From Eledone cirrhosa (taxonomy: Eukaryota), in NCBI GenBank assembly GCA_964016885.1, contig OZ024744.1, forward strand, positions 94,550,001 through 94,614,000: a stretch of 64,000 bases of DNA, in the 5' to 3' direction. Position numbers and translations under genes: made by a program. This document shows positions 1 to 64,000 of this stretch, in pieces; the first letter of the stretch is position 1; the number at the start of each line of letters is the position of its first letter. Below the pieces are notes generated by a model. It had not been told where the DNA came from, did not search any database, and saw only the letters and a program-made list of their open reading frames with translations.

Positions 1-2064
1 TTTAGTTGTCAACTGTTGACTACCTGGTGGTATATGGGCAAGATAGGAGGTACCTTTGTCATACAATGGTAATCCCAGGTGTGCAAGGTGTTACACAATA
101 CTATTTAGTTGTCAACTGTTGACTACCTGATGGTATATGGGCAAGATAGAAGGTACCTTTGTAATACAATGGTAATCCCAGGTGTGCAAGGTGTTACACA
201 ATACCATTTAGTTGTCAACTGTTGACTACCTGATGGTATATGGGCAAGATAGGAGGTACCTTTGTAATACAATGGTAATCCCAGGTGTGCAAGGTGTTAC
301 ACAATACCATTTAGTTGTCAACTGTGGACTACCTGATGGTATATGGGCAAGATAGGAGGTACCTTTGTAATACAATGGTAATCCCAGGTGTGCAAGGTGT
401 TACACAATACCATTTAGTTGTCAACTGTGGACTACCTGATGGTATATGGGCAAGATAGGAGGTACCTTTGGTAATCCCAGGGATGTGTGGACTACCTGAT
501 GGTATATGGGCAAGATAGGAGGTACCTTTGTAATACAATGGTAATCCCAGGTGTGCAAGGTGTTACACAATACCATTTAGTTGTCAACTGTTGACTACCT
601 GATGGTATATGGGCAAGATAGGAGGTACCTTTGTAATACAATGGTAATCCCAGGTGTGCAAGGTGTTACACAATACCATTTAGTTGTCAACTGTTGACTA
701 CCTGATGGTATATGGGCAAGATAGAAGGTACCTTTGTAATACAATGGTAATCCCAGGTGTGCAAGGTGTTACACAATACCATTTAGTTGTCAACTGTTGA
801 CTACCTGATGGTATATGGGCAAGATAGGAGGTACCTTTGTAATACAATGGTAATCCCAGGTGTGCAAGGTGTTACACAATACCATTTAGTTGTCAACTGT
901 GGACTACCTGATGGTATATGGGCAAGATAGGAGGTACCTTTGTAATACAATGGTAATCCCAGGTGTGCAAGGTGTTACACAATACCATTTAGTTGTCAAC
1001 TGTTGACTACCTGGTGGTATATGGGCAAGATAGGAGGTACCTTTGTCATACAATGGTAATCCCAGGTGTGCAAGGTGTTACACAATACCATTTAGTTGTC
1101 AACTGTTGACTACCTGATGGTATATGGGCAAGATAGGAGGTACCTTTGTAATACAATGGTAATCCCAGGTGTGCAAGGTGTTACACAATACTATTTAGTT
1201 GTCAACTGTTGACTACCTGATGGTATATGGGCAAGATAGGAGGTACCTTTGTAATACAATGGTAATCCCAGGTGTGCAAGGTGTTACACAATACCATTTA
1301 GTTGTCAACTGTGGACTACCTGATGGTATATGGGCAAGATAGGAGGTACCTTTGTAATACAATGGTAATCCCAGGTGTGCAAGGTGTTACACAATACCAT
1401 TTAGTTGTCAACTGTGGACTACCTGATGGTATATGAGCAAGATAGGAGGTACCTTTGTAATACAATGGTAATCCCAGGTGTGCAAGGTGTTACACAATAC
1501 TATTTAGTTGTCAACTGTTGACTACCTGATGGTATATGGGCAAGATAGGAGGTACCTTTGTAATACAATGGTAATCCCAGGTGTGCAAGGTGTTACACAA
1601 TACCATTTAGTTGTCAACTGTGGACTACCTGATGGTATATGGGCAAGATAGGAGGTACCTTTGTAATACAATGGTAATCCCAGGTGTGCAAGGTGTTACA
1701 CAATACCATTTAGTTGTCAACTGTGCACTACCTGATGGTATATGAGCAAGATAGGAGGTACCTTTGTAATACAATGGTAATCCCAGGTGTGCAAGGTGTT
1801 ACACAATACTATTTAGTTGTCAACTGTGGACTACCTGATGGTATATGGGCAAGATAGGAGGTACCTTTGTAATACAATGGTAATCCCAGGTGTGCAAGGT
1901 GTTACACAATACCATTTAGTTGTCAACTGTGGACTACCTGATGGTATATGGGCAAGATAGAAGGAACCTTTGTAATACAATGGTAATCCCAGGAGTGTGT
2001 TGACTACCTGATGGTATATGGGTAATAGGATGAACCTTTGTAATACAAAGGTAATCCCAGGACT
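1..2064. repeat. 103-bp tandem satellite, about 19-20 units, truncated by the window start
   Basis: Unit TTTAGTTGTCAACTGTTGACTACCTGATGG...GTTACACAATACCA recurs at 1, 104, 207 and onward with few substitutions and one internally deleted unit near 470-490. Confidence 0.97.
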
Positions 2065-2700
2065 TCAAGGTGTTACACAGCACCATTTAGTTGTTTGTGA
2101 CCTGTATCTAGAGTGAGATCTGTATGGAAGAAGTTCCAAGAACTGAGATGTATGCTTGTGAGGAGGGAAGTGTTGCTTAAATAGAAGGCAAAGGTATTTG
2201 GTGCATGTGAGAGAAGTGCCTTGATTATGGGAGCAATACATGGATAATGAACATGGAGCAACAGAGAAGTTTTGCAAGAACAGAAATGAGAATGGTTTGG
2301 TGGATGAGTGGAGTATTGCTGAGAGAAAAGAAGATAAGGATTTGCAGAGGGTGGTGTGAATAGGAGCCAGCGATGAATGTTGTGAAGAGAAATGGATTAT
2401 ATGGTTGAGGGAAGAAGGAAGGAAGTGACTGGATGAGAATGGGAGCCAATGATGATTGTTGTGAAGAAAAATGGAGTGAGATGGTTGGGTCATGTGTTGA
2501 GGAAGGATGAAAGTGATTGGGTGAGATAAAAGGAATGGAAATATATGTGGCAGGAAGTAGGATGACCAAGAAAGACATGGCTAAAAATGATGGCACAGGA
2601 AATGAAAGCCAGAGTGTGGGTGATGGTGGATGCAGATGATGGGGAAGAGTGGAGAGGCTTGTTATGAGGACTGCGAGGTTAAGCCTTGCTTTAACCTTTA
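2065..2700 (+). mobile_element. Degenerate RTE-clade LINE fragment adjoining the satellite
   Basis: Starts QGVTQHHLVVCDL (endonuclease end). Later GGAAGAAGTTCCAAGAACTG and decayed RLY..CVRSA..YGS/ETW-like segments resemble the C-terminus of the RTE at 27500-27900. Confidence 0.6.
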
Positions 2701-3019
2701 AATGCTTCTTGTGTTTAACTCATACATTCCATTTTTGGCATGGTTTCTACAGTTGGATGCCCTTATTAATGGCAACCACTTTACATGTACTTAGAGCTTT
2801 TTATTGTGGTGCAAGCACTACTACCTGTAAGAATGAACTGAGTGCTTTTTTTTTTTATTGTCACACCAACACTAACACTTTACAAAGATAATAACTAAGT
2901 GGTGGCCTTTCCTAACCAGATCCAACTCAGGGACCAAGCATAAAAGTTGACAGCAGTGTGATAGATAAAGCAAGTAGTGACATGAAGGTAGGGAAAGAAT
3001 CTGATTCATCTGTTATAGT

Positions 3020-3206
3020 TGATACTATTGCGTTTTTGTGGTAAAGGCTTTATCTTGTATAATTATCTCACTTAATATCAAATCTATGAGGTTTTGATGT
3101 TATTTATTTTGAAAACAATATCTGTACGAGCGGCCACTTACGGCCAGTTTGAATAGAAAGAGGTGAGAGAATTCTCACAGGATACGGCTGGTTTAAATGC
3201 TTAAAA
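3020..3206. mobile_element. Partial copy of ~200-bp TTAA-flanked MITE-like family
   Basis: Shares GGTAAAGGCTTTATCTTGCATAATTATCTC...GAAAGAGGTGAGAGAATTCT...GGTTTAAATGC with copies at 7333, 11205 and 19605. Confidence 0.65.
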
Positions 3207-3254
3207 CCTTTGGCATGGCAGATTATAAGCTAGTCAGACACAAAATCAACTAGT

Positions 3255-5000
3255 GGAGGATGGAACCAGTGACTGGCAGAGCAATATCATTGTAAATTGC
3301 TTCAAGGGCAATGAGTGCAGGGACAGGTAACTACAAAGGTATCAAGTTAATGGATCAGCTCATGAAAGTTGCTGAAAGGGTTATAGCACAACTAATTAGG
3401 GACAGAATCAAGTTAAATGAGATGCAGTTTGGTTTTAAGATGGTACTACTGATGCCCTCTTCTCGGTGAGACAACTGCAGGAGAAGTACTTAGCCAAGAG
3501 TAAGTCCCTGTATTTGGCATTTGTTAATCTAGAGAAGGCCTCGGATGGCTTGTGAGGTTGTCCAAGCCATGTATAAAGGTGCAACTAGCAAGATGAGAAT
3601 TGTAAATGGGTACAATGATGAATTTGAAATGTAGATGTGGGTCTACCAGGACTTGTCCTTAGTCTACTTCTGTTTACCATTGTTCTTCAGTCCATAATAG
3701 AAGAGTTTACGATTGGCTGTCCATGAGAACTCTAATGTGCTAATGATCTAGTCCTTAATAGCTGAATTTGTGGAAGAGTTAGAGATGAAATTCTAACATG
3801 GAAGCAAAACATAGAATTGAAGCACCTAAAAGTAAACTTTGCAAATACAGGTCTTAATAAGTAGGATAGATGATGGGACCCTGAAACTATCAAGGAAGGA
3901 AGTAACCTTGCTTAATATGCAGACAAAGACTGGACAAAAATGTCATAAGGTGTACACAGCATAATCTATAGACACCAAGAGATGTCATGGGATTACAGGC
4001 AGGTAATGAAGGAGGTGAGGTAAACTTTGTATGTGGCGGAAGCACAGGAAATGTAAGCACTTAGAACACCTGTGAAATAGATTGCATGAATTGCCAGGGA
4101 GACTCCTTAGAAGTTGACAGCTTTTGTTACCTAATATCAGAGAGTGTAAGCATCAGGCTTACACTCATGAGGTTGTGAGTTTGATTCTTGGACCAGGCTT
4201 TGTGTTGTGTTTTTGAGCAAGACACTTTATTTCGTGTTGCTCCAGTCTACTCTGCTGTAGAAATGAGTTGCGACATCACTGGTGCCAAGCTGTATCGGCC
4301 ATTGCCTTTCTCTTGGACAACATCAGTGGTGTGGAGAGGGGAGACTGGTATGTATGAGTGACTGCTGGTCTTCCACAAACAGCCTTGCTTGGACTTGTGC
4401 CTCAGAGGGGAACTTTCTCGGTGCAAATCACATGATCATTCGTAATTGAAGGGGGTCTTTACCCTTTAATAGCTAGATTTAGAGCAGGTTGGAAGACGTT
4501 TAGAGAACTAATACCTCTGTTGACAACGAAAAGCTTCTCTCTCAGAGTAAAGGGTAAACTTGATGCATGCATGTAAACTGCAATGCTACATGGCAGTAAG
4601 ATATGGGTCTTGACAACAGAAGACCTGTGAAGAAAGAAATGATGCATGGATTTTGCAATGAATGTGTAATGTTAGTGTGTATGAATGATGCAGCATAAGT
4701 TGAACTGAGAGAAAAAACTCTGTATAAGAGGAATTGGATGTAGAATGCAAGAGAGAAGTCTACATTGGTATGGACATGTGATGACAGTTGTATAAAGAAA
4801 AGCAGAGAAACATCGGTGAATGGGAGTCAATGAAGAGGCAGACATAGGAAGATATGGAGTGGGGTAGTAAAGACTGCCCTTAGGAAGACATGGGGTGGGG
4901 TAGTGAAGACTGACCACCATAGGAAGCTAAATCTCATGGTAGAAATGACAAAGGACCATCATGGCTGGCAACATGCAATACTGGAAAAGATGCCCCTTCC
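3255..5000 (+). mobile_element. Degenerate RTE LINE (RT and C-terminal region) interrupted by a SINE at ~4135-4468
   Basis: Recognisable NYKGIKLMDQLMKVAERVIAQLIRDRIKLNEMQFG, TTDALFSVRQLQEKYLAKSKSLYLAFVNLEKA and RLHWYGHVM segments with many stops and indels. Confidence 0.85.
4135..4468 (+). mobile_element. tRNA-derived SINE, family B (CORE/V-like central domain)
   Basis: B-box-like GAGTTTGATTC followed by GTGTTTTTGAGCAAGACACTTTATTTC; the body matches 11810-12104. Confidence 0.75.
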
Positions 5001-6757
5001 ATTTCTGATGCTATGGTAACCAGTAACTATTATATTTATGTAGATGTGACATGACCTACCACTTTACCATCATTCCTCAGTAACTATTCTCTTCATCATT
5101 ATACTCCCTCTCCCTCCACTCTATCAACAAACATTTTGTAGCTCTTTAGAAATTACTCTCATCCTCACTATACCTGGGATGATACCCACTCTCTTATCCT
5201 GTTAAATCCCACCACACTTGTCAGCTCTTTAGTAGTTATTCTTTTCATCATTCTACCCCCTACATAATCCCTCCTACTTCTTGTCTCCTTAACTGTACAC
5301 CACTCTATTTGAGATCACTCCTTAGAAGCTATTCCCATCATCACCAATACTCTTCATTCTAGCTCTCTCTCACCTCTTTTTTTTGTCAAATCCCACTACA
5401 CATTGTAATTATCTTCCTTATCACACCCAACTATTGTCATACATTCACGACTTCATACCATTGCCCTCACTCCCTAAATATGGATGCTTTCGGACAAAGC
5501 ATCTCTTCCATAGGGTAGAGAGGGTTTTCAGTCAAGTCAGGGACCAAGAACCTCCCTAGTGCTGGTGCCATAAAACAAATCCGTCTCCTCAAGGCCACCA
5601 CTTACAGATTCCACCACCCAACACTTGGTGTTCTTGCTCTCTCTATATCTTTTTCTCCACCTACTTTTCTGTCAGTAACAAATATATAACCACCATTGCT
5701 CTTTTTAAAGTACCTTATTCGTCATGTTCCCATCTGACCTCTCACATTACTGTCTCTCTTCATCATGCTAAGATCACAATGACATCTCTAAAGTTGGTGT
5801 CATCATGAAATGCACCTAGTACACTTTGGAAAGTGGTACCGCTGGTGTTGCGATAAAATGCACCCTGTACTCTCTGTAAAGTGGTAGTAGTTATGGTGTC
5901 AATAAAATGCACCCAGTATTCTCTGTAAAGTGGTTGGCATTAAGAAGGGCATCTATTGAAATCATTCCAAAAATGGAACATATGAACAAGATGTATCCCT
6001 CCCTGCTTAGTCCAGTCTAAGGCATTTTGTCCATTTTCCCTGCTAACAAGTGTTGGATGGGTCATTGCAGACTAAGTCGGTGCTAAAGTGGGGCTACTGA
6101 CCTCCCAGACAGGTCAGGGATTCGCATTTCACTTACTTACAGTTTCAGGTTCTACCAAGTGCATTTTATCACGGCGCTAGCTCTAGAGATTTTGTCATGT
6201 CTTTGACACAACTCAAGAGTCCTCTCAATCCTTTGTTTGACAAGCTTTCTATGGCTGGATGCCCTTCCTGTCACCAATTATGTTATAGCATGTATTGGGT
6301 GTGTTTATTGTGTAGATCACCAACATTAGAGAGGTTGACATGCCCTTGAATCAACAGACTGGTCCTCTCAACCCTTTTTCAATCATGATTTCTACAGAGG
6401 GGTGTTCTTCCTTTCACCAATCACCTTACAGGGTGTACTGGGTGCAATTTCATGGCACTGTCACTTGTGAGGTTGTTGGTCATAGACCCAACAGAAGAGC
6501 CCTCTATGAGAGGTATAATATATAATTCTACAGTTTGTGTATACATATAGTTTTTTTTTCCTTTTTTTTTTCAAAATTCTGTTGTTTCAGCCTTTTCTCT
6601 CTCTCTCCAAACTTGGTATTTGCTGAAGAAGGACTTGTGTCTGATATGTTGAAAACCTCATTTACTGCTTCCCAAATGTGAGCCTAATAAGACTTTGTGT
6701 TTTTGTATCTTTGGGGTTTGACTTGTTTATTCTTCAACTAATGTGTGTATATATATT

Positions 6758-6977
6758 TATGTAAAAAGTAAACAGAAATAACAACACAACTGGTACAGTA
6801 TATGGAAGGAATACATTAGGTTAACGCTTGATATAGCAGGAAGAGGGTCTTAACGTTTCGGACTCTAGTCCTTCATTAGAAGAAAGAATGAGAAATAAGA
6901 TAAATTGAAGAGACGGGTGGGATGGAATTGGAAAAAATGTCTTTAGATAAAAATAACAGGTCCATTCATGTTGACAT
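6758..6977 (-). mobile_element. Short non-coding Penelope-pLTR-like element with decayed hammerhead motif (6848-6883)
   Basis: Reverse complement of the element at 57018-57240 and 63735-63990. The core reads CTAATGA-A-GGAC-TAGA-GTCC-GAA-ACGT-T-AAGA on the minus strand. Confidence 0.7.
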
Positions 6978-7332
6978 CTCTTGGAATATATATGTGTGTG
7001 TGTGTAGGAATCTGTTAGATGAAAGATCAAGGAAAACAGTGCTCAATCTGTTGCAAGAAAGCTTATTTAGTATAAACAAAGTTTCACTTAACACGCACAG
7101 ACGTATATACGGTTTGTACATGAGCTATGACCCATTTGCTCTTGAGTTGTCAGTTCAAATTCTCTGCTGCTGTTTTGTTAAATACTTTAACCTACATTGT
7201 CTTGGTTAACCTACTTGCTGAAAATATGTACAATTTCAATACCATTTGGTTTTAGGTCAGTTTCTACATTAACACTTTTGATACCAAATATCCTGAAACT
7301 GCCCTTAGTTCTGTTATAGCTAGCTGTTCATT

Positions 7333-24794: not shown

Positions 24795-24883
24795 ATGCCA
24801 CCTCGCCGCCGACGACGCTCGCCTGACACTGAGAGAAATATAGGAGATTTAAATGATATAAGAGCTAAGAAGATTGCATCTTG
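24795..24883 (+). CDS. DCUN1D5: DCN1-like protein, coding exon 1: MPPRRRRRSPDTERNIGDLNDIRAKKIAS(W); exon begins at 24755
   Basis: Acceptor TTTTTTTCTGTAG at 24754, ATG at 24795, donor TG|GTAAGT at 24884 (phase 2). The basic N-terminus resembles DCUN1D5 MPVKKKRKSP and the phase fits the next exon. Confidence 0.85.
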
Positions 24884-25543
24884 GTAAGTTAACCACTTGC
24901 ATTTTACTAGATCCTATGTTAACCCTTTTGCTACCAAAACTCGCTCTGATTCTATGAATTAAAACTCATTCATTGTAAAGGTTTCCAATTTAAATTAAAT
25001 ATCTTCCAATTTAATTTTATATAGGAACCTTACATTAAGTTACTATCTTAGTAATGAAATAGTTTTAGTAAATCTCTCAAAATTCTTCATTAATTAGTTA
25101 AAATAGAATGTATTTCATTAGAAATGTGGTCATGAAAGAGTTAATGTATTTTCTATTGAATTTAGGCTGTCAGTATCTCCACTTAGATCATCATATGTCC
25201 ACTTTCTACGCTGGCATGGGTTGGATGGGTTGTCATGGTCTCTTTTGGACCAGAATGGTCAGAACAATACACTTGTATTTCATTAGAAATGAGTTTCTGA
25301 AAGGGTTAATGAAGTTTTCCTTTGAACATTTGAAAACAATTAACTAACCTTTCCTTTACTATATCTATCTATCTCCTTATAATATATAACCAGCAATTTC
25401 TCTGTCTGTCTGTCTGACAGTGGAAACATGTGTGCGCGTGCAAATGTTTTTTGCGCACGCGTAGAGAGAGAGTGAGAGTGAAAGAAAGAGACAGACTACG
25501 AGAGGGGGATAGTGGGAGGGAGAGGGGGGAATTGAGGAGTGCT

Positions 25544-34552: not shown

Positions 34553-36682
34553 TATCTAATGAAAGACACATACTGCCAATGTATTTCAAATCATTTTGAA
34601 AATAATAAAAGATTTCAAGAGATTTATTAAAATCACTCTCTCATTAAACTGGTATTTGAGCCATAACTTCACAAAGGTTTTTACATAAAATTATAATGGA
34701 AACTTCTTAGATAAATATGTACACTGTAAAACAAACAGGGCTGTATTGTAGAACCTGGGGCAGTTTCAAACAGCTTGGTATCAAAAGCAATAATAGGGAG
34801 ATGGAGTTGTAGGGTTTAAGAAATTTCATGAATGAAATCCTAAACCACAAAGAACAAAATAAGATTCATGTTAAATCCATTGGACAATAACCTACACTTT
34901 GTAAACATTGTGGACTTTACTTTGGTCCAGTCTGGACTCTACCCACCGCCTCTTACTAACATGCAGGTCAGACATCTTGATTCTCTCTGAAAACTCAAAA
35001 CATGGAATTTTGGGGATTTCTATAACACCTGTTAGCTCTTGCATTTCTCATCACCATCACCATTTAATGTCTGTTTTCCATACTTGCATGGGTTACATGT
35101 GTTATCACGTACTGAGGCTAAACTGGTCAGTTAACCACATCCTACTTGTACACTTTGTTTTGGGGTTGGTTTTTACAGTTGGATGCCCTTCTTAATGCTA
35201 ACCACTTTACAGGGTGTACCTGGAGCATAGTTTTTACAGCTGGATGCCCTTCTTAATGCTAACCACTTTACAGCATGGTTTCTATAGCTGGATGTCCTTC
35301 CTAACACCAATCACTTTACAGAGAGTACAGGGAACATTGTTTTTACATGTGGATGCCCTTCCTAATACCAACCACTTTACAGAGGGGACTGGGAGCATGG
35401 TATTTACAGCTCAATGTCTTTCCTAATGCCAACCATCTAACGGTGTGTACTGGGAGCATTTTATCATGACGCCTGAACTACCACCTTGCAGGGTTGACTG
35501 GATACTTTTTGCTATAGTACCAGCACTACCACAATGCATCAATAATGCTACCGGTGAAGCAGATAGCTCTTTTCTTATCCTGAACACTGTAAAATAATAT
35601 TATTACCTTCATGTATCCCTGACTGACACACACACATTCCAATTATGTCTGATATTTTTCGTGCCTCCTCAGCCAGCCTTTACAAAATCTCCACCATCTT
35701 TGCCCTATCAGATTATCTCCAATGTCTGCCTAATCAAAATCACTCTCTCCTGAACCTTCTGGTACTTGAGATTAGCCTATTGTTAATAACCCCAGTTTTA
35801 AGTTGTCTCTGGCAGCAGATATGCTTCACTCCCTGATCCAGTTGGTGCCTGAAAGTACTATTTAACTCATGTCCCTTAACATCCCTCACACAAAGTTCAT
35901 AAATCCTAGTCCCTTAAGTGGTTCATGCAATTCTGTTTTGTAACAGCAATGGCAAAGAACATTGTCTACGTACACCACCTGCTTTCAAAAGGGTCCTTGG
36001 CTGTGTCACTCACTGGTTTTGGAGTGCTGCACTGACAATTGGCATAGTTGCTTCTTCCAGGCAATCGGAACAGTTGCTTCCTCCAGGCAATGGACACAGT
36101 TGCTTCCTCCAGGCAATGGGCACAGTTGCTTCTTCTATTTAGATGGCCTAAAAAAATCTTAAGCATGGGCCAAACTTCCCATGCTACATACAACACATGC
36201 TTTGCAGAAATTACTGTATTTTCTGGCCTATTTGATGCCACATTGTATGAGGTACCCCCTACTTTTACAAGGAAATTTTGAGGAAAAAAGAATTTCTGTA
36301 TATTTCTTCATAAATTTATAAAAAATTATTTCATAGTTTTTTTTTTCAGGAATTTTTATATAAGTTTGACATCATTTTACTTATATAAATTGTGTTGTAC
36401 TACTGTATTAATAATAGTAATACAAAGTAAATTTTCTTAAAACCTCAATTGTCCTCACCCTCCATTTGGCCTCCCATCGGTGATACTGGTGTAATTGGAT
36501 GGCGGGAAGATTATTTTAAAAAAAAAAAAAAAAGTGTGCCTAATAGGCTGGCAAATACAGTAGTTTACATTTGCTACTTTTTATCTGAAAAAATTTTTCA
36601 TCAAATTTTTTTTTTTGGGGGTTGGTGGGTAGTTTACATGAAATGAATTTATATTTGACCTTTGGTGATTCTTTACTTTCAG

Positions 36683-36771
36683 GCCTAAAAAGGATCTAAT
36701 GAATGACGAAGTAGTTGATAATTTTTCTAAGAAAAGATGTTTAGCATGGTTTCAAGAATATTCTGGCTCTG
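36683..36771 (+). CDS. DCUN1D5: DCN1-like protein, coding exon 2: PKKDLMNDEVVDNFSKKRCLAWFQEYSGS
   Basis: Acceptor CTTTACTTTCAG, donor G|GTGAGA; 89 nt with phases 2 and 1; matches DCUN1D5 FSSKKCLAWFYEYAG. Confidence 0.92.
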
Positions 36772-39450: not shown

Positions 39451-39856
39451 CTATTATTATAGTCATTTGTATTGAGACTACTACATTTCAAGTTTATTCA
39501 GTGCTTCATAAGTCAACCAGATGTTTAGACTTCTAGCTACAGGCTTAAAATCTAAATGACCAGTAGTTGGTGACCAGAGACACCTTGGTGTAATGTTTAA
39601 CACACTCATTCAACATCCTTGTAGGTGCCTCTGTCTCCTTTTCTCCATCTCCAGTGATACATTACCTGATTTTCTAAACTATTATTTATAAGTTATCAAC
39701 TATTATTATAGTTATTTATGTTGGGACAACTAAATTTCAAATTTCAAATTTATGTCAACTGGATGTTTACAAATGAAATTATAATATAAATTATATTATT
39801 TGAAGTATGAATTGATGTATGAAATAAACTAAGACATATCTAACCTCTATTAACAG

Positions 39857-39933
39857 AAGGAGCAGATGATGATGTGATTTGTCCAGAAGGTATGGAAAAA
39901 TTCTGTGAAGATATTGGAGTGGAACCAGAAAAT
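39857..39933 (+). CDS. DCUN1D5: DCN1-like protein, coding exon 3: (E)[25 protein letters not shown]
   Basis: [17 protein letters not shown] is the DCUN1D4/5 signature at the start of the PONY/DCUN1 domain; acceptor TAACAG, donor AAT|GTAAGA (phase 0). Confidence 0.96.
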
Positions 39934-40038
39934 GTAAGAAACTATATTAGAAATATTTTCTAACTTGGATTATAAACCTATGTTGGTATTTTCACCTGTT
40001 CTTATTTACTTATAATTAATTTAATATATTTAATTGAA

Positions 40039-40155
40039 GGCGTGTGGCCGAGTGGTTAGAGAATTGGATTTACAATCGTGAGGTTGTGAGTTCGATTCCC
40101 GGGCCGGGTGATGTGTTATGTTCTTAAGCAAGACACTTTATTTCACGTTGCTCCT
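40039..40155 (+). mobile_element. 5' part of a family-B SINE
   Basis: GGCGTGTGGCCGAGTGGTTAG A box, GAGTTCGATTCC B box, TTCTTAAGCAAGACACTT core. Confidence 0.75.
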
Positions 40156-51479: not shown

Positions 51480-53250
51480 TAAAAATTATTTTTCTCTCTT
51501 TTTGCTCTGCGAATATATCACAGATATCTCAGTGGCTGTTGAGAATGTCAGACAGAGCTGTTTCAAGATTCATTAATTTCTCATCGACACTGAACCAGTA
51601 CAAAAGAGAGAAAAATAATTTTTTCATAACAAGTGTTTTTTCTTTGATAACAAGCTCCCGTATATATATATAAACATATAGTATATTCTTTCATATACAC
51701 CCGTATTATACTTAATGCTATGTTAGTGCTACTGCCGAGAGCACTCAGTCTGCCTTATAAGGTGGTCGTGGTTGTGATGGTGACATGACAAAAGCCACCC
51801 AGCACACCCTGTAGAGTGGTTGTGCCAGTGACACGACAACAATAAACGGCCAGCACAACCTATAAAGTGTTTATGATATTGACACAAGAACACCCAGCCC
51901 AACCTGTAGAGCGGTTGCTTTGGAGACATGACAAAAAACGCCCTGTCCACTCTGTAAAGTGCCTAGCCAAGACTGTAAAGGGGACGTTTTGGTGTCACGA
52001 CGTAATTGATTGTCAAGTGATAGAGTAGACAATATTATTTTTTCTGAATAAAAAATGGTGTTAATGAAGTAAGTGATGCAGATGTTGAATGATATGTCAT
52101 TTTTACTATGGACACTTGTAAACCATTTCCATCTAATTATAATTAGCTTGACCAATAAACAATTTGTTAGTAATGTCCAATGTTCAAAAAACACAACTTG
52201 TTGAACATTGGACATTACTAACAAATTGTTTATTGGTCAAGCTAATTATAATTAGATGGAAATGGTTTACAAGTTTCCATAGTAAAAAGGACATATCATT
52301 CAACATCTGCATCACTTACTTCTTTAACACCATTTTTTATTCAGAAAAAATAATATTGTCTACTCTATCACTTGACAATCAATTACGTTGTGACATCAAA
52401 ACGTCCCCTTTACAGTCTTGGCTAGGCACTTTACAGAGTGGACAGGGCGTTTTTTGTCATGTCTCCAAAGCAACCGCTTTACAGGTTGGGCTGGGTGTTC
52501 TTGTGTCAATATCATAAACACTTTATAGGTTGTGCTGGTCGTTTATTGTTGTCGTGTCGCTGGCACAACCACTCTACAGGGTGTGCTGGGTGGCTTTTGT
52601 CATGTCACAACCACGACCACCTTATAAGGCAGACTGAGTGCTCTCGGCAGTAGCACTAACATAGCATTAAGTATAATACGGGTGTATATGAAAGAATATA
52701 CTATATGTTTATATATATATACTGGAGGCACATGGCTTAGTGGTTAGAGCATTGGCCTTGCAATCGAAAGGTTGTGAGTTCAATTCTCAGACTGGGTGAT
52801 GTGTTTTTCCTTGAGCAAGACACTTTATTTCACATTGCTCCAGTTTACTCAGCTGTAGAAATGATATGATAGGGACTGGGGTCTCTATCATTCCACTGCA
52901 AAGTGGTCGTGGAGGTGCCACGGCAAAAAAGGACCCAGCACTCACTGTAAATGAGGTTGGTGTTAGGAAGGGCATCCAGCTGTAGAAATCAAGCCAGAAT
53001 CAGTTCCCGTCCCACCCTTGCAAGCAGGGAAAAAGCGGACGTAAAATGAATTGAATTGATTGACTGGAGTCTTGCTATCAAAGAAAAAACATTTTTGTTA
53101 TGAAAAAATTATTTTTCTCTTTTTTGTACTGGTTCAGAGAGTGTCATTGATGAGAAATTAATGAATCTTGAAACAGCTCTGTCTGACATTCTCAACAGCC
53201 ACTGAGATATCTGTGATATGTTCGCAAAGCAAAAGAGAGAAAAATAATTT
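51480..53250. repeat. Long inverted repeat centred at 52188-52200 with a SINE inserted in the right arm
   Basis: 51660-52187 and 52201-52720 are near-perfect reverse complements; 51480-51658 mirrors 53065-53250 less closely. Confidence 0.92.
52728..53062 (+). mobile_element. SINE with tRNA head, CORE-like domain and RTE-derived 3' tail; 7-bp TSD
   Basis: ACTGGAG at 52721-52727 and 53063-53069; 52900-52997 matches the RTE 3'UTR at 28070-28215. Confidence 0.8.
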
Positions 53251-55888: not shown

Positions 55889-55939
<51 letters not shown>

Positions 55940-55942
<3 letters not shown>

Positions 55943-56118
55943 ATATAAGATCAAAAGGTGGTTAAAAGAGTTCCATGTATTTTATAAAATACATGGAACT
56001 CTTTTAACCACCTTTTGATCTTATATATTATTTATACTCCAGTCCTACAAACTGTAGAGTGCTACTTATCCGATATCTGCATTGCTTTATTGTACTACAA
56101 TAAAACTCACCTCCTACA
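55940..56118. mobile_element. Fold-back non-coding element in (TA)n
   Basis: AATATATAAGATCAAAAGGTGGTTAAAAGAGTTCCATGTATTTT is immediately followed by its reverse complement, then an unpaired extension. Confidence 0.7.
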
Positions 56119-56495: not shown

Positions 56496-56523
<28 letters not shown>

Positions 56524-56527
<4 letters not shown>

Positions 56528-57240
56528 CCATCCCGCCCGTCTCCTCAATCTATCTTATTTCTCATTCTTTCTTCCGATGAAGGACTAGCGTCTGAAACGT
56601 TAAGGATCTCTTCCTGCTATATTGAGTGTTAACCTAATATATACCTTCCATATACTGTATCGATTGTGTTGTAATTTCTGTTTACTTTTTACATATATAT
56701 ATATATATATATATATATCAATGCTTATGTGAACTTCTCAAAATTCGTTGGATTTTCTGATTGGACTTTCACCTCGAAACTGGATACCAACCCGGAGTAC
56801 ACCAGACCTTCCACCAGGAAATCTTTCGTATTTTTGAAATTTTCTTTGCTTCTTGCATTTAAATATTCCACGACTCTCTACCACTTTTCCTCTACTACAA
56901 TCTTCTTATACCACCTTCTTCTTGTCATCCATCTATTTTTCACTCCCACCCTAGTACCTTCAATATTCCCAATCTTAAATCTTTTCTCCGCCAGCTCCAT
57001 TCTACTCTCAAGCGCTTATGTCAACATGAATGAACCTGTTATTTTTATCTAAAGAGATTTTTTTCCAATTCCAACCTGCCCGTCCCCTCAATCTATCTTA
57101 TTTCTTATTCTTTCTTCTGATGAAGGACTGGCGTCCGAAACGTTAAGACCTTCTTCCTGCTATATCGAGCGTTAACCTAATATATCCCTTCCATATACTG
57201 TACCGATTGTGTTGTTATTTCTGTTTACCTTTTACATACA
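56524..57240 (+). mobile_element. Partial tandem of a Penelope-pLTR-like non-coding element with two hammerhead motifs
   Basis: 56524-56695 repeats 57067-57240; HHR motifs at 56570-56605 and 57113-57148; flanked by (TA)n and (TG)n. Confidence 0.8.
57113..57148 (+). ncRNA. Minimal type-I hammerhead ribozyme motif with canonical core
   Basis: TCTT-CTGATGA-A-GGAC-TGGC-GTCC-GAA-ACGT-T-AAGA. Confidence 0.75.
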
Positions 57241-57241
57241 T

Positions 57242-57282
<41 letters not shown>

Positions 57283-58384
57283 TAAGAGGAATTTTCCACC
57301 TGAGTGCTATATACAAGTGGTTAAATAGAAGGAAACCCCAGTAAGACCCTTCACTGGCAAGGAGCACAAGGAATTAATTTATCTGGTTAGATAACAGTGC
57401 TGGAATTTGTCATTGGTATATATATATATATTGTTGGCAGAGAAATAGTCATCTAAAGAAACATAGGTAGTTACAGTATGTGACAGAATAATTAAGTTTA
57501 GGTCAGTCAGTGGACAACATGACAGCAACAGAAATCTCTATATGCAAATGGTCCATTTCTATAAGCACCTCGTTTAGTCAGATTGCTTCAATGACAGATA
57601 AAAGTCTCTGTTATTGTAGCTAGTGACTTTAATGGACACATATTGGGCTACACTGTACTGGTTATTTTAATGTATAAAGCAGGCATATGGAATCATTATC
57701 ATCACCATCGTTTAATGTCCATTTTTCCATGCTAGCATGGGTAAGACAAGGTGTCCTGTTGTGAGACAAGTCAGTTCAGGTGACTGTTTTTGCTCATATG
57801 GAACTGTTTTGGGCCTGGTTTTTACGGCTGGACATCCTTCCTAACACCAACCACATTTACAATGTGAACTCGGTGTCACTACAACAACCACTTTACAGTG
57901 TGGACTGGGTGCTTTTTATCCTCTCACCAGTACAATTACCTTACAGCGTGGACTGGGTGCTTTTGACACGTCACCAGCACAACCACCTTACAGGGTGGAC
58001 TGGGTGCTTTTTTGATATGGCACAAAATGACCATCTGACAATTAAGAAGTAGGAGGAGTATGTGGTTATCTGTAAGAAATGAGACAACCTGCTGTAAGCC
58101 ATAGACCAGATCTGTGAAATTCCAACCAAATACGTGACATTGTGGTGGAATAATGAGGTAGACAGGGCCCACAAAATCTAAGACACAGACCTAGAAGATA
58201 GGGAAGAAAGTTGGAGCAAAATAACAATATGTAGAAACTAAAAGAGAAGTTGGACATCAAGTATACTTAATAAGGAGAGAAGTGAAAGAGGTGTTTTTGT
58301 CAATGTTCTGTAGATCAGACATGCCCTCAGTTACACAGGTAGCTACCACCACTAGCTATGATGATGATAGCAAAGTACCAGTGG

Positions 58385-63199: not shown

Positions 63200-63745
63200 A
63201 AGAGGTTGTGATGGCGACACAACGAAAAGCGCCCAGCTTACACTGTAAAGTGGTTGTGTAGTTGACATAACAAAAAGCACCAGTCCACACTGTAAAGTGG
63301 TTATGTAGGTGATATGACAAACATCATCTACTGCACACTGTAAAGTGGTTGTGTAGTTGACATAACAAAAAGCACCCAGTCTATGCTGTAATGTGGTTGT
63401 GTAGGTGTCAGGATAAAAAGCACCCAGTCCACACTGTAAAGTGGTTATGTAGGTGATATGATAAACATCTACTGCACACTGTAAAGTGGTTGTGTAGTTG
63501 ACATGACAAAAAGCACCCAGTCTATGCTGTAATGTGGTTGTGTAGGTGTCAGGATAAAAAGCACCCAGTACTCAGTGTAAATGAGGTTGGTGTTAGAAAG
63601 GGCATCCAGCTGTAGAAACCAAGCTAAAATCAGTTCTGTATGAGCAAGACACGATCATCTGATCTGACTTGTCTCACAACAGGGCAACTCGTCTAACCCA
63701 TTCTAGTATGGTAAAATGGACGTTAAATGGTGGTAATGATGATCA
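63200..63745 (+). repeat. RTE 3'UTR-type element with tandem ~43-bp CACTGTAAAGTGGTT units
   Basis: Repeated AAAAGCACCCAGTC..ACTGTAAAGTGGTTGTGTAG, then GGCATCCAGCTGTAGAAACC and the GGACGTTAAA tail. Confidence 0.7.
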
Positions 63746-63990
63746 TATATATAAGATGGCAACATGAATGGACCTGCTATTTTTCTCTGAGCATATTTTT
63801 TCCAATTCCACCCCGCCCATTCCTTCAATCTTTCTAATTTCTCATTCTTTCTTCTGATGAAGGACTAGCGTCCGAAACGTTGAGATTATTTTCCTGTTAT
63901 TTTCCTGCTATTTCAAGCATTAACCTAATATATTCCTTCCATATACTGTACCGATTGTATTGTTATTTCTGTTTATCTTTTACATACATA
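63735..63990 (+). mobile_element. Penelope-pLTR-like short element with canonical minimal hammerhead motif (63850-63885)
   Basis: TCTT-CTGATGA-A-GGAC-TAGC-GTCC-GAA-ACGT-T-GAGA; body matches 57018-57240. Confidence 0.78.
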
Positions 63991-64000
63991 TATCATCATC

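Follow-up and report, generated by a model that had tools for sequence, protein, structure and literature searches.

Tandem minimal hammerhead ribozymes in Eledone cirrhosa as probable passengers of an internally deleted Penelope-like element

Minimal hammerhead ribozymes (HHRs) of Penelope-like elements (PLEs) have been described as cleaving weakly even as dimers and as having a highly conserved G10.1–C11.1 pair (PMC4209133), and dimer cleavage of minimal HHRs is attributed to Lunse et al. in a review (PMC6765202). For the PLE Poseidon, the HHR is reported to require protein, with uncut RNA as the main template (PMC11167929), and internally deleted PLE derivatives are already known (PMC3846280). 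A U4C change in the hammerhead core is reported to reduce activity in vitro, yet the viroid carrying it stayed infectious (PMC3088659). Non-LTR retrozymes are described as tandem arrays of canonical type I motifs expressed as 170–400-nt circles (PMC7229834), and a preprint takes as its criterion two consecutive units, each with a complete motif, within a unit range of 51–972 bp (10.64898/2026.07.22.740005). The link from PLEs to retrozymes has so far been argued from phylogeny.

Here we analysed a pair of minimal HHRs in a 64,000-nt stretch of Eledone cirrhosa DNA (the window), for which an earlier note, made from the sequence alone, had suggested dimerization in cis and release of a retrozyme-like RNA of ~543 nt. 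We assign a probability of about 0.85 to the reading that the locus is an internally deleted copy of a Neptune-like PLE and that the two HHRs are its terminal-repeat ribozymes, now likely inactive passengers. It is likely an ordinary decaying transposon remnant that probably releases no small RNA, rather than a new retrozyme family.

Anatomy of the two-ribozyme copy and its host intron

The window contains two minimal type I HHRs in direct orientation on the forward strand, at 56569–56606 and 57113–57148, with C3 at 56574 and 57117 (spacing 543 nt) and predicted cuts after 56601 and 57144; the spacing and the cut sites agree with the earlier note. Both contain an additional A behind A9, a stem II of 4 bp capped by a 4-nt loop, GAA, an intact ACGT palindrome as helix III, U17 and a stem I of 4–5 bp, and the repeats that carry them align over 176 nt with 89.8% identity. 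The downstream motif, with an intact core and a GUU triplet, has the full set of PLE minimal HHR features (the core, a nucleotide that separates positions 9 and 10.1, G10.1–C11.1, a palindromic helix III and a short helix I). The upstream motif departs from the family at two sites, with C in place of U4 and U in place of C11.1, the latter closing stem II with a G10.1–U11.1 wobble, and lacks two of these features, U4 and G10.1–C11.1. The first of these changes had been recognized from the outset and is real, and the second was visible in the pattern given in the earlier note but undiscussed there. An Rfam scan at gathering thresholds called no hammerhead family for the window motifs. A search of the 3.0-Gb genome with the HHR-core pattern returned 3,311 exact matches, versus 0 for the reversed control, ruling out a chance motif. 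A descriptor scan of 122 kb located three sense motifs (C3 at 56574, 57117 and 63854) and no antisense motif; the third, absent from the earlier note, has an intact core and lies in the same intron.

Alignment to a natural full-length copy with a 3,669-nt unit, L098, which served as the reference for the anatomy of the window copy, resolved the locus into three pieces corresponding, in order, to unit positions 3494–3669, 1–309 and 3446–3669. The left pseudo-LTR (pLTR; 56524–56699, forward strand) matches positions 3494–3669 at 90.3% identity, starts, after 5′ truncation, 77 nt upstream from the HHR cut, and adjoins a (TA)n microsatellite (56500–56524) that is the likely insertion target, family copies ending in (TA)n or (CA)n. 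An internal (TA)n tract (56693–56718), also present in full-length copies, marks the boundary with the 5′ body. The body piece (56710–57017, forward strand) matches the first 309 nt of the unit at 92.9% identity and comprises the 5′ UTR and ~17 ORF codons, the start ATG of other copies (unit position 257) being ATT at 56965–56967. A clean deletion junction without microhomology (57017–57018) then joins it to the right pLTR (57018–57242, forward strand), the last 225 nt of the element, whose 39 best matches elsewhere in the genome are 95–97% identical and which is followed by a (GT)n microsatellite (57244–57280). Unit positions 310–3445, a total of 3,136 nt spanning the reverse transcriptase (RT), the GIY-YIG endonuclease and most of the 3′ UTR, are absent. 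The spacer between the motifs is therefore the 5′ part of a transposon body, and this, like the start of the right repeat at 57018, had not been part of the first description.

Two solo pLTRs also lie in the window, one at 6754–6986 on the reverse strand with G5 changed to A, and one at 63754–63990 in sense within the same intron, which holds the intact core at 63854. Other repeats lie nearby. A 104-nt near-perfect palindrome (55933–56036; 54-nt arms, 96%) adjoins a (TA)n tract and is likely another repeat family, since similar sequence flanks the locus L034. A 48-nt unit is tandemly repeated 2.5–3 times at 57875–58012, within a repeat that also occurs on the other strand near 63400–63600. Two segments with tRNA-like heads and a common tail, at 52731–52794 and about 40037–40110 on the forward strand, are likely tRNA-derived SINE copies; the former head scored 29.9 bits against the Rfam tRNA model, and ARAGORN found no tRNA there.

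Protein homology placed coding exons 1–3 of a DCUN1D4/5-like gene at 24795–24899, 36681–36770 and 39853–39933 on the forward strand. One exon frame was 97% identical to a predicted Octopus vulgaris protein over 29 residues, and the best solved relative of the exon peptide was DCN1-like protein 4. The Octopus vulgaris protein mapped exon by exon on the forward strand, with the next exon starting at window-equivalent position 121495 behind a polypyrimidine tract and AG, and all remaining exons lie 57–72 kb past the window end. This next exon was found neither by a Pfam PF03556 genome search nor by motif scans; it was found with the protein query. Judged by protein homology, a single 81,561-nt intron on the forward strand runs from 39934 through the window end at 64000 to window-equivalent position 121494, and the proviso of the earlier note, that the intron after 39933 should span both motifs on the same strand, holds.

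The parent family and its recurrent short copies

The locus belongs to an abundant family. A first-look genome search with the pLTR gave 2,543 candidates, the best 40 of which were 95–100% identical, and the first 30 of the 3,311 core matches were mostly solo 3′ fragments with a common end point followed by (TA)n or (CA)n. The spacer gave 1,789 first-look candidates, and many of these copies continued into an interrupted ORF that bears RT and GIY-YIG motifs. Ten of the eleven long copies that we fetched have this pLTR as their end, the period being 3.5–3.8 kb in most, and full copies were ~3.7 kb long with RT and GIY-YIG. The pLTR match bore out the proposal that these are PLE-type minimal HHRs with a palindromic helix III.

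A natural RT piece had 26 relatives with 40–66% identity, among which P0003 and P0017 carry RVT_1 and GIY-YIG domains, and residues 1–898 of P0003 align collinearly along L098. When six interrupted ORF fragments were scanned directly with Pfam, a single weak RVT_1 match resulted; a Pfam search with the GIY-YIG ORF piece gave no match, and a metagenome search with the endonuclease piece returned one weak locus, in which a motif scan was empty. The long copies have the layout of endonuclease-containing (EN+) PLEs, a single ORF with a telomerase-like RT followed by GIY-YIG, of which the window copy retains ~17 codons. Among the nine long copies scanned, a CX4CxxC linker was present in five and the CxxC GIY-YIG pattern in four. 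The marks of Neptune PLEs, namely a C-terminal CCHH GIY-YIG that follows a CX2-5CxxC linker, and microsatellite targeting, were found, and the family fits a Neptune-like PLE, a placement made from linker and GIY-YIG features against the published description rather than from a tree. We found no published description of this octopus PLE family within the scope of the search, outside which lay Repbase and subscription journals.

To survey related copies, we collected 130 loci from three 5′-body searches, which left 113 after removal of one without a match and 16 duplicates; these loci were picked by likeness to the window copy, so fractions among them are biased and differ from genome-wide rates. 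They included pLTRs arising from partial tandem insertion, inverted 5′-truncated copies and an optional tail, with direct left pLTRs at 51 loci and inverted pLTRs at 14. At 30 of the 113 loci the copy has one sharply defined tail end, ~145 nt inside the body, with an (AT)n microsatellite behind it. Tail-ended loci (L116, L119, L120, L125–L135, L139, L140 and others; about 1590–1601) often had a head-to-head inverted pLTR.

Short copies like that in the window recurred. At 28 of the 113 loci, a 5′ body ending between positions 217 and 404 is joined to a right pLTR that restarts between −212 and −69 relative to the cut site, and these junctions are scattered. Two complete motifs were present at four of the 113 loci, the window locus included, and all four had at least one damaged motif. 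Among solo copies, 17 of 30 were truncated between −140 and −100, and the window junction falls at −127; truncation points of the short and the solo copies overlapped, with slightly different medians of −102 versus −130 (KS p = 0.049). The exact window junction occurs at two places genome-wide, whether 0 or 2 mismatches are allowed. The two junction-sharing copies have no derived body alleles in common (of 14 and 12), and the left pLTR of the second runs beyond the junction point into ordinary upstream PLE sequence.

We also examined the left pLTR starts for 5′ ends made by the ribozyme. None of the 51 direct left pLTRs starts +1 to +4 after the cut, giving no clear signal, and starts at +1 to +20 numbered eight versus four and four in the neighbouring intervals (51 pLTRs, one likely duplicate pair). 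The direct left pLTR extends past the HHR cut in 34 of the 51 cases.

Thirty further loci, L224–L253, contained a younger sister PLE family (25 of 30 loci) with open frames of 800–1000 codons, a 3′ UTR of >1 kb, pLTRs that are 98% identical in L224, and a minimal HHR with a GUC triplet and a stem I of only 2 bp, which a stricter scan missed; U4C occurs in 3 of 19 of its motifs. At L227, three other hammerhead-like motifs (positions 92, 579 and 1121) carry an ACTAGT palindrome, two of them identical and 487 nt apart, which may belong to a different short tandem HHR family and are possibly a better retrozyme candidate than the locus at 56524–57240.

Ribozyme upkeep, dimer geometry and the origin of the locus

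The ribozyme motif is not maintained in inserted copies. In 66 pLTRs that had not been picked by the HHR pattern, departures from the majority base numbered 40 of 715 core positions (5.6%) versus 423 of 6785 flanking positions (6.2%; p = 0.57), as expected of neutral decay, and the HHR was intact in 16 of the 66. In the sister family, with ~70% ORF identity, the core, the bulged A and ACGT are kept at 19 of 25 loci amid unrelated flanks, with a compensatory stem II change from A–U to G–C. Comparison with this one sister family from the same genome indicates that the motif is real and appears to be under selection at the level of the element lineage.

A nested cis dimer of the two motifs, as the earlier note had envisaged, can be drawn. 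In the modelled geometry each core would cut the site of its partner: the nick after 56601 would fall to the intact downstream core, and the cut after 57144 to the damaged upstream one. Release of the 543-nt piece is unlikely because the doubly mutated upstream core must make the downstream cut; if the intron RNA dimerized in cis, a single nick after 56601 would be expected. In energy models that leave out tertiary contacts and proteins, the active dimer was less stable than the best cofold by 14.9 kcal/mol for the window pair and by 7.8–9.0 kcal/mol for pairs with intact cores; in a whole-region fold run without a matched control it lay 30 kcal/mol above the ensemble, a figure to which we give no weight. 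The intact downstream and 63854 cores could pair mutually or with family RNAs in trans.

On the reading that we prefer, target-primed reverse transcription would start at the (TA)n tract from the pLTR end, copy ~225 nt from the 3′ end and stall where most solo copies also stop. The RT would then jump to RNA position 309 in the 5′ part and continue through the upstream pLTR, over an uncut or re-ligated HHR site. The two window pLTRs share one private change (+23, in 2 of 100 rows) and have different alleles at two sites of common polymorphism (−70 and +42); either one pLTR may have been copied twice or two different pLTRs once.

The suggestion that the locus is a working forerunner of a retrozyme, of the same PLE origin, in which a cis dimer cuts both sites in the host pre-mRNA to give a linear or circular RNA of 543 nt, seems to us quite improbable. 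It can draw on the sense orientation of both motifs in the intron, on the dimer that could be drawn with both helix III palindromes intact, on the apparent selection in the element lineage seen at 19 of 25 sister loci, and on the PLE pLTR origin proposed for retrozymes (10.64898/2026.07.22.740005), but the same preprint reports in vitro cleavage for one of nine predicted dimers. The core on which the downstream cut depends is the one with U4C and G10.1–U11.1, the triplet is GUU, stem I is 4 bp, and the predicted fold of the 543-nt unit is no more stable than those of shuffled sequences (z −0.99). GUU is a weaker triplet than GUC. A satellite array was rejected, as the locus extends over 1.32 units and TRF (period up to 1000) showed no array of 543 nt. 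With 1.32 units, an unamplified junction, neutral decay of the cores and a damaged upstream core, the claim that this is a retrozyme-like unit freeing a 543-nt RNA was not supported. Spread as an amplified non-autonomous family, a true non-LTR retrozyme moving by its own circular RNA, is hardly credible. Two junctions do recur twice each among the 28 short copies (308/−127 and 330/−119), but the window junction is confined to two copies with no common derived alleles, no arrays were seen, none of the 113 loci has two direct 5′-body copies, and rolling-circle copying of a small circle cannot give the extended left pLTR of the second copy; allele, array and junction counts thus largely refute it. 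An LTR retrozyme was ruled out by the type I (not type III) HHR and the PLE body.

A different route to the same structure would be insertion of a full-length copy followed by a DNA-level deletion of 3.1 kb, the ribozymes again being passengers. The two pLTR differences at common polymorphic sites would be possible for the pLTR pair of a full-length parent, and other family copies have internal deletions elsewhere. We nevertheless consider this route very improbable: the junction lacks microhomology, its right break falls within the zone where RT truncates solo copies, the left breaks of all 28 short copies fall within 217–404, and another copy, carrying other alleles, acquired the identical junction. 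It would alter the route of formation only and leave the identity of the locus unchanged. A bolder extension, which we regard as unlikely, holds that the family repeatedly yields two-HHR copies of 400–650 nt by RT jumps from a stall ~100–140 nt upstream of the ribozyme to the 5′ UTR or ORF start, that these would be snapshots of retrozyme birth, and that this locus, transcribed along with an 81-kb intron that also holds a third intact motif, would give a ribozyme-cut or circular RNA of 543 nt with the help of a protein or partner motif.

An RT-generated, internally deleted PLE copy therefore remains our preferred reading. Thousands of PLE fragments are decaying in this genome, and as one of them the locus is by itself of little importance. 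At family level, the precise tail end at 145 nt, the zone of 5′ truncation and the repeated occurrence of short copies with two ribozymes outline a concrete route from autonomous PLEs to units of retrozyme size, and if an RNA circle were found, one locus would suffice to test that step.

Comparison with known ribozyme-bearing elements

The window motifs resemble the minimal HHRs described in the pLTRs of metazoan PLEs (Cervera and de la Pena 2014, PMC4209133), sharing type I topology, a short helix I, an extra nucleotide between A9 and G10.1, and a palindromic 15.1–16.1 without a loop 3, and in both cases the genome holds thousands of mostly solo copies, with pairs ~3 kb apart in full elements. 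The window pair is 543 nt apart because the body is deleted; stem II is 4 bp here versus 7–8 bp in the Schistosoma families of that work, and the upstream window motif is damaged.

The parent family is like the EN+ PLEs of the Neptune clade as described by Craig et al. (2021, PMC8557442) in its single ORF with an RT followed by a C-terminal CCHH GIY-YIG, its CX4CxxC linker, its microsatellite targets, its partial tandems, its inverted 5′-truncated pLTRs and its optional tail, which is ~145 nt here (30 of 113 loci) versus the 30–40 bp described for PLEs. As reported for Poseidon PAc of the green anole (Frangieh et al. 2024, PMC11167929), two 3′ ends (pLTR and tail) mark RT starts and cDNAs cross the HHR site. 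By contrast, the Poseidon PAc HHR overlaps the start codon, and in the window family the HHR belongs to the 3′ UTR/pLTR, with ~350 nt between it and the next ATG downstream.

With the non-LTR retrozymes described by Cervera and de la Pena (2020, PMC7229834) and Li et al. (2026, 10.64898/2026.07.22.740005), the locus shares a short non-coding unit, direct type I HHRs, a low GC content (35.5%) and PLE pLTR ancestry. It differs from them in lacking a tandem array and unit amplification and in having minimal rather than canonical HHRs, one of them damaged. Set against a definition of at least two tandem units with complete HHRs and an amplified unit, the locus offers 1.32 units with a damaged upstream motif, a junction in two copies and no arrays among the 113 loci. 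Its 543 nt exceeds the 170–400-nt circles (PMC7229834) and falls within the unit range of 51–972 bp (10.64898/2026.07.22.740005).
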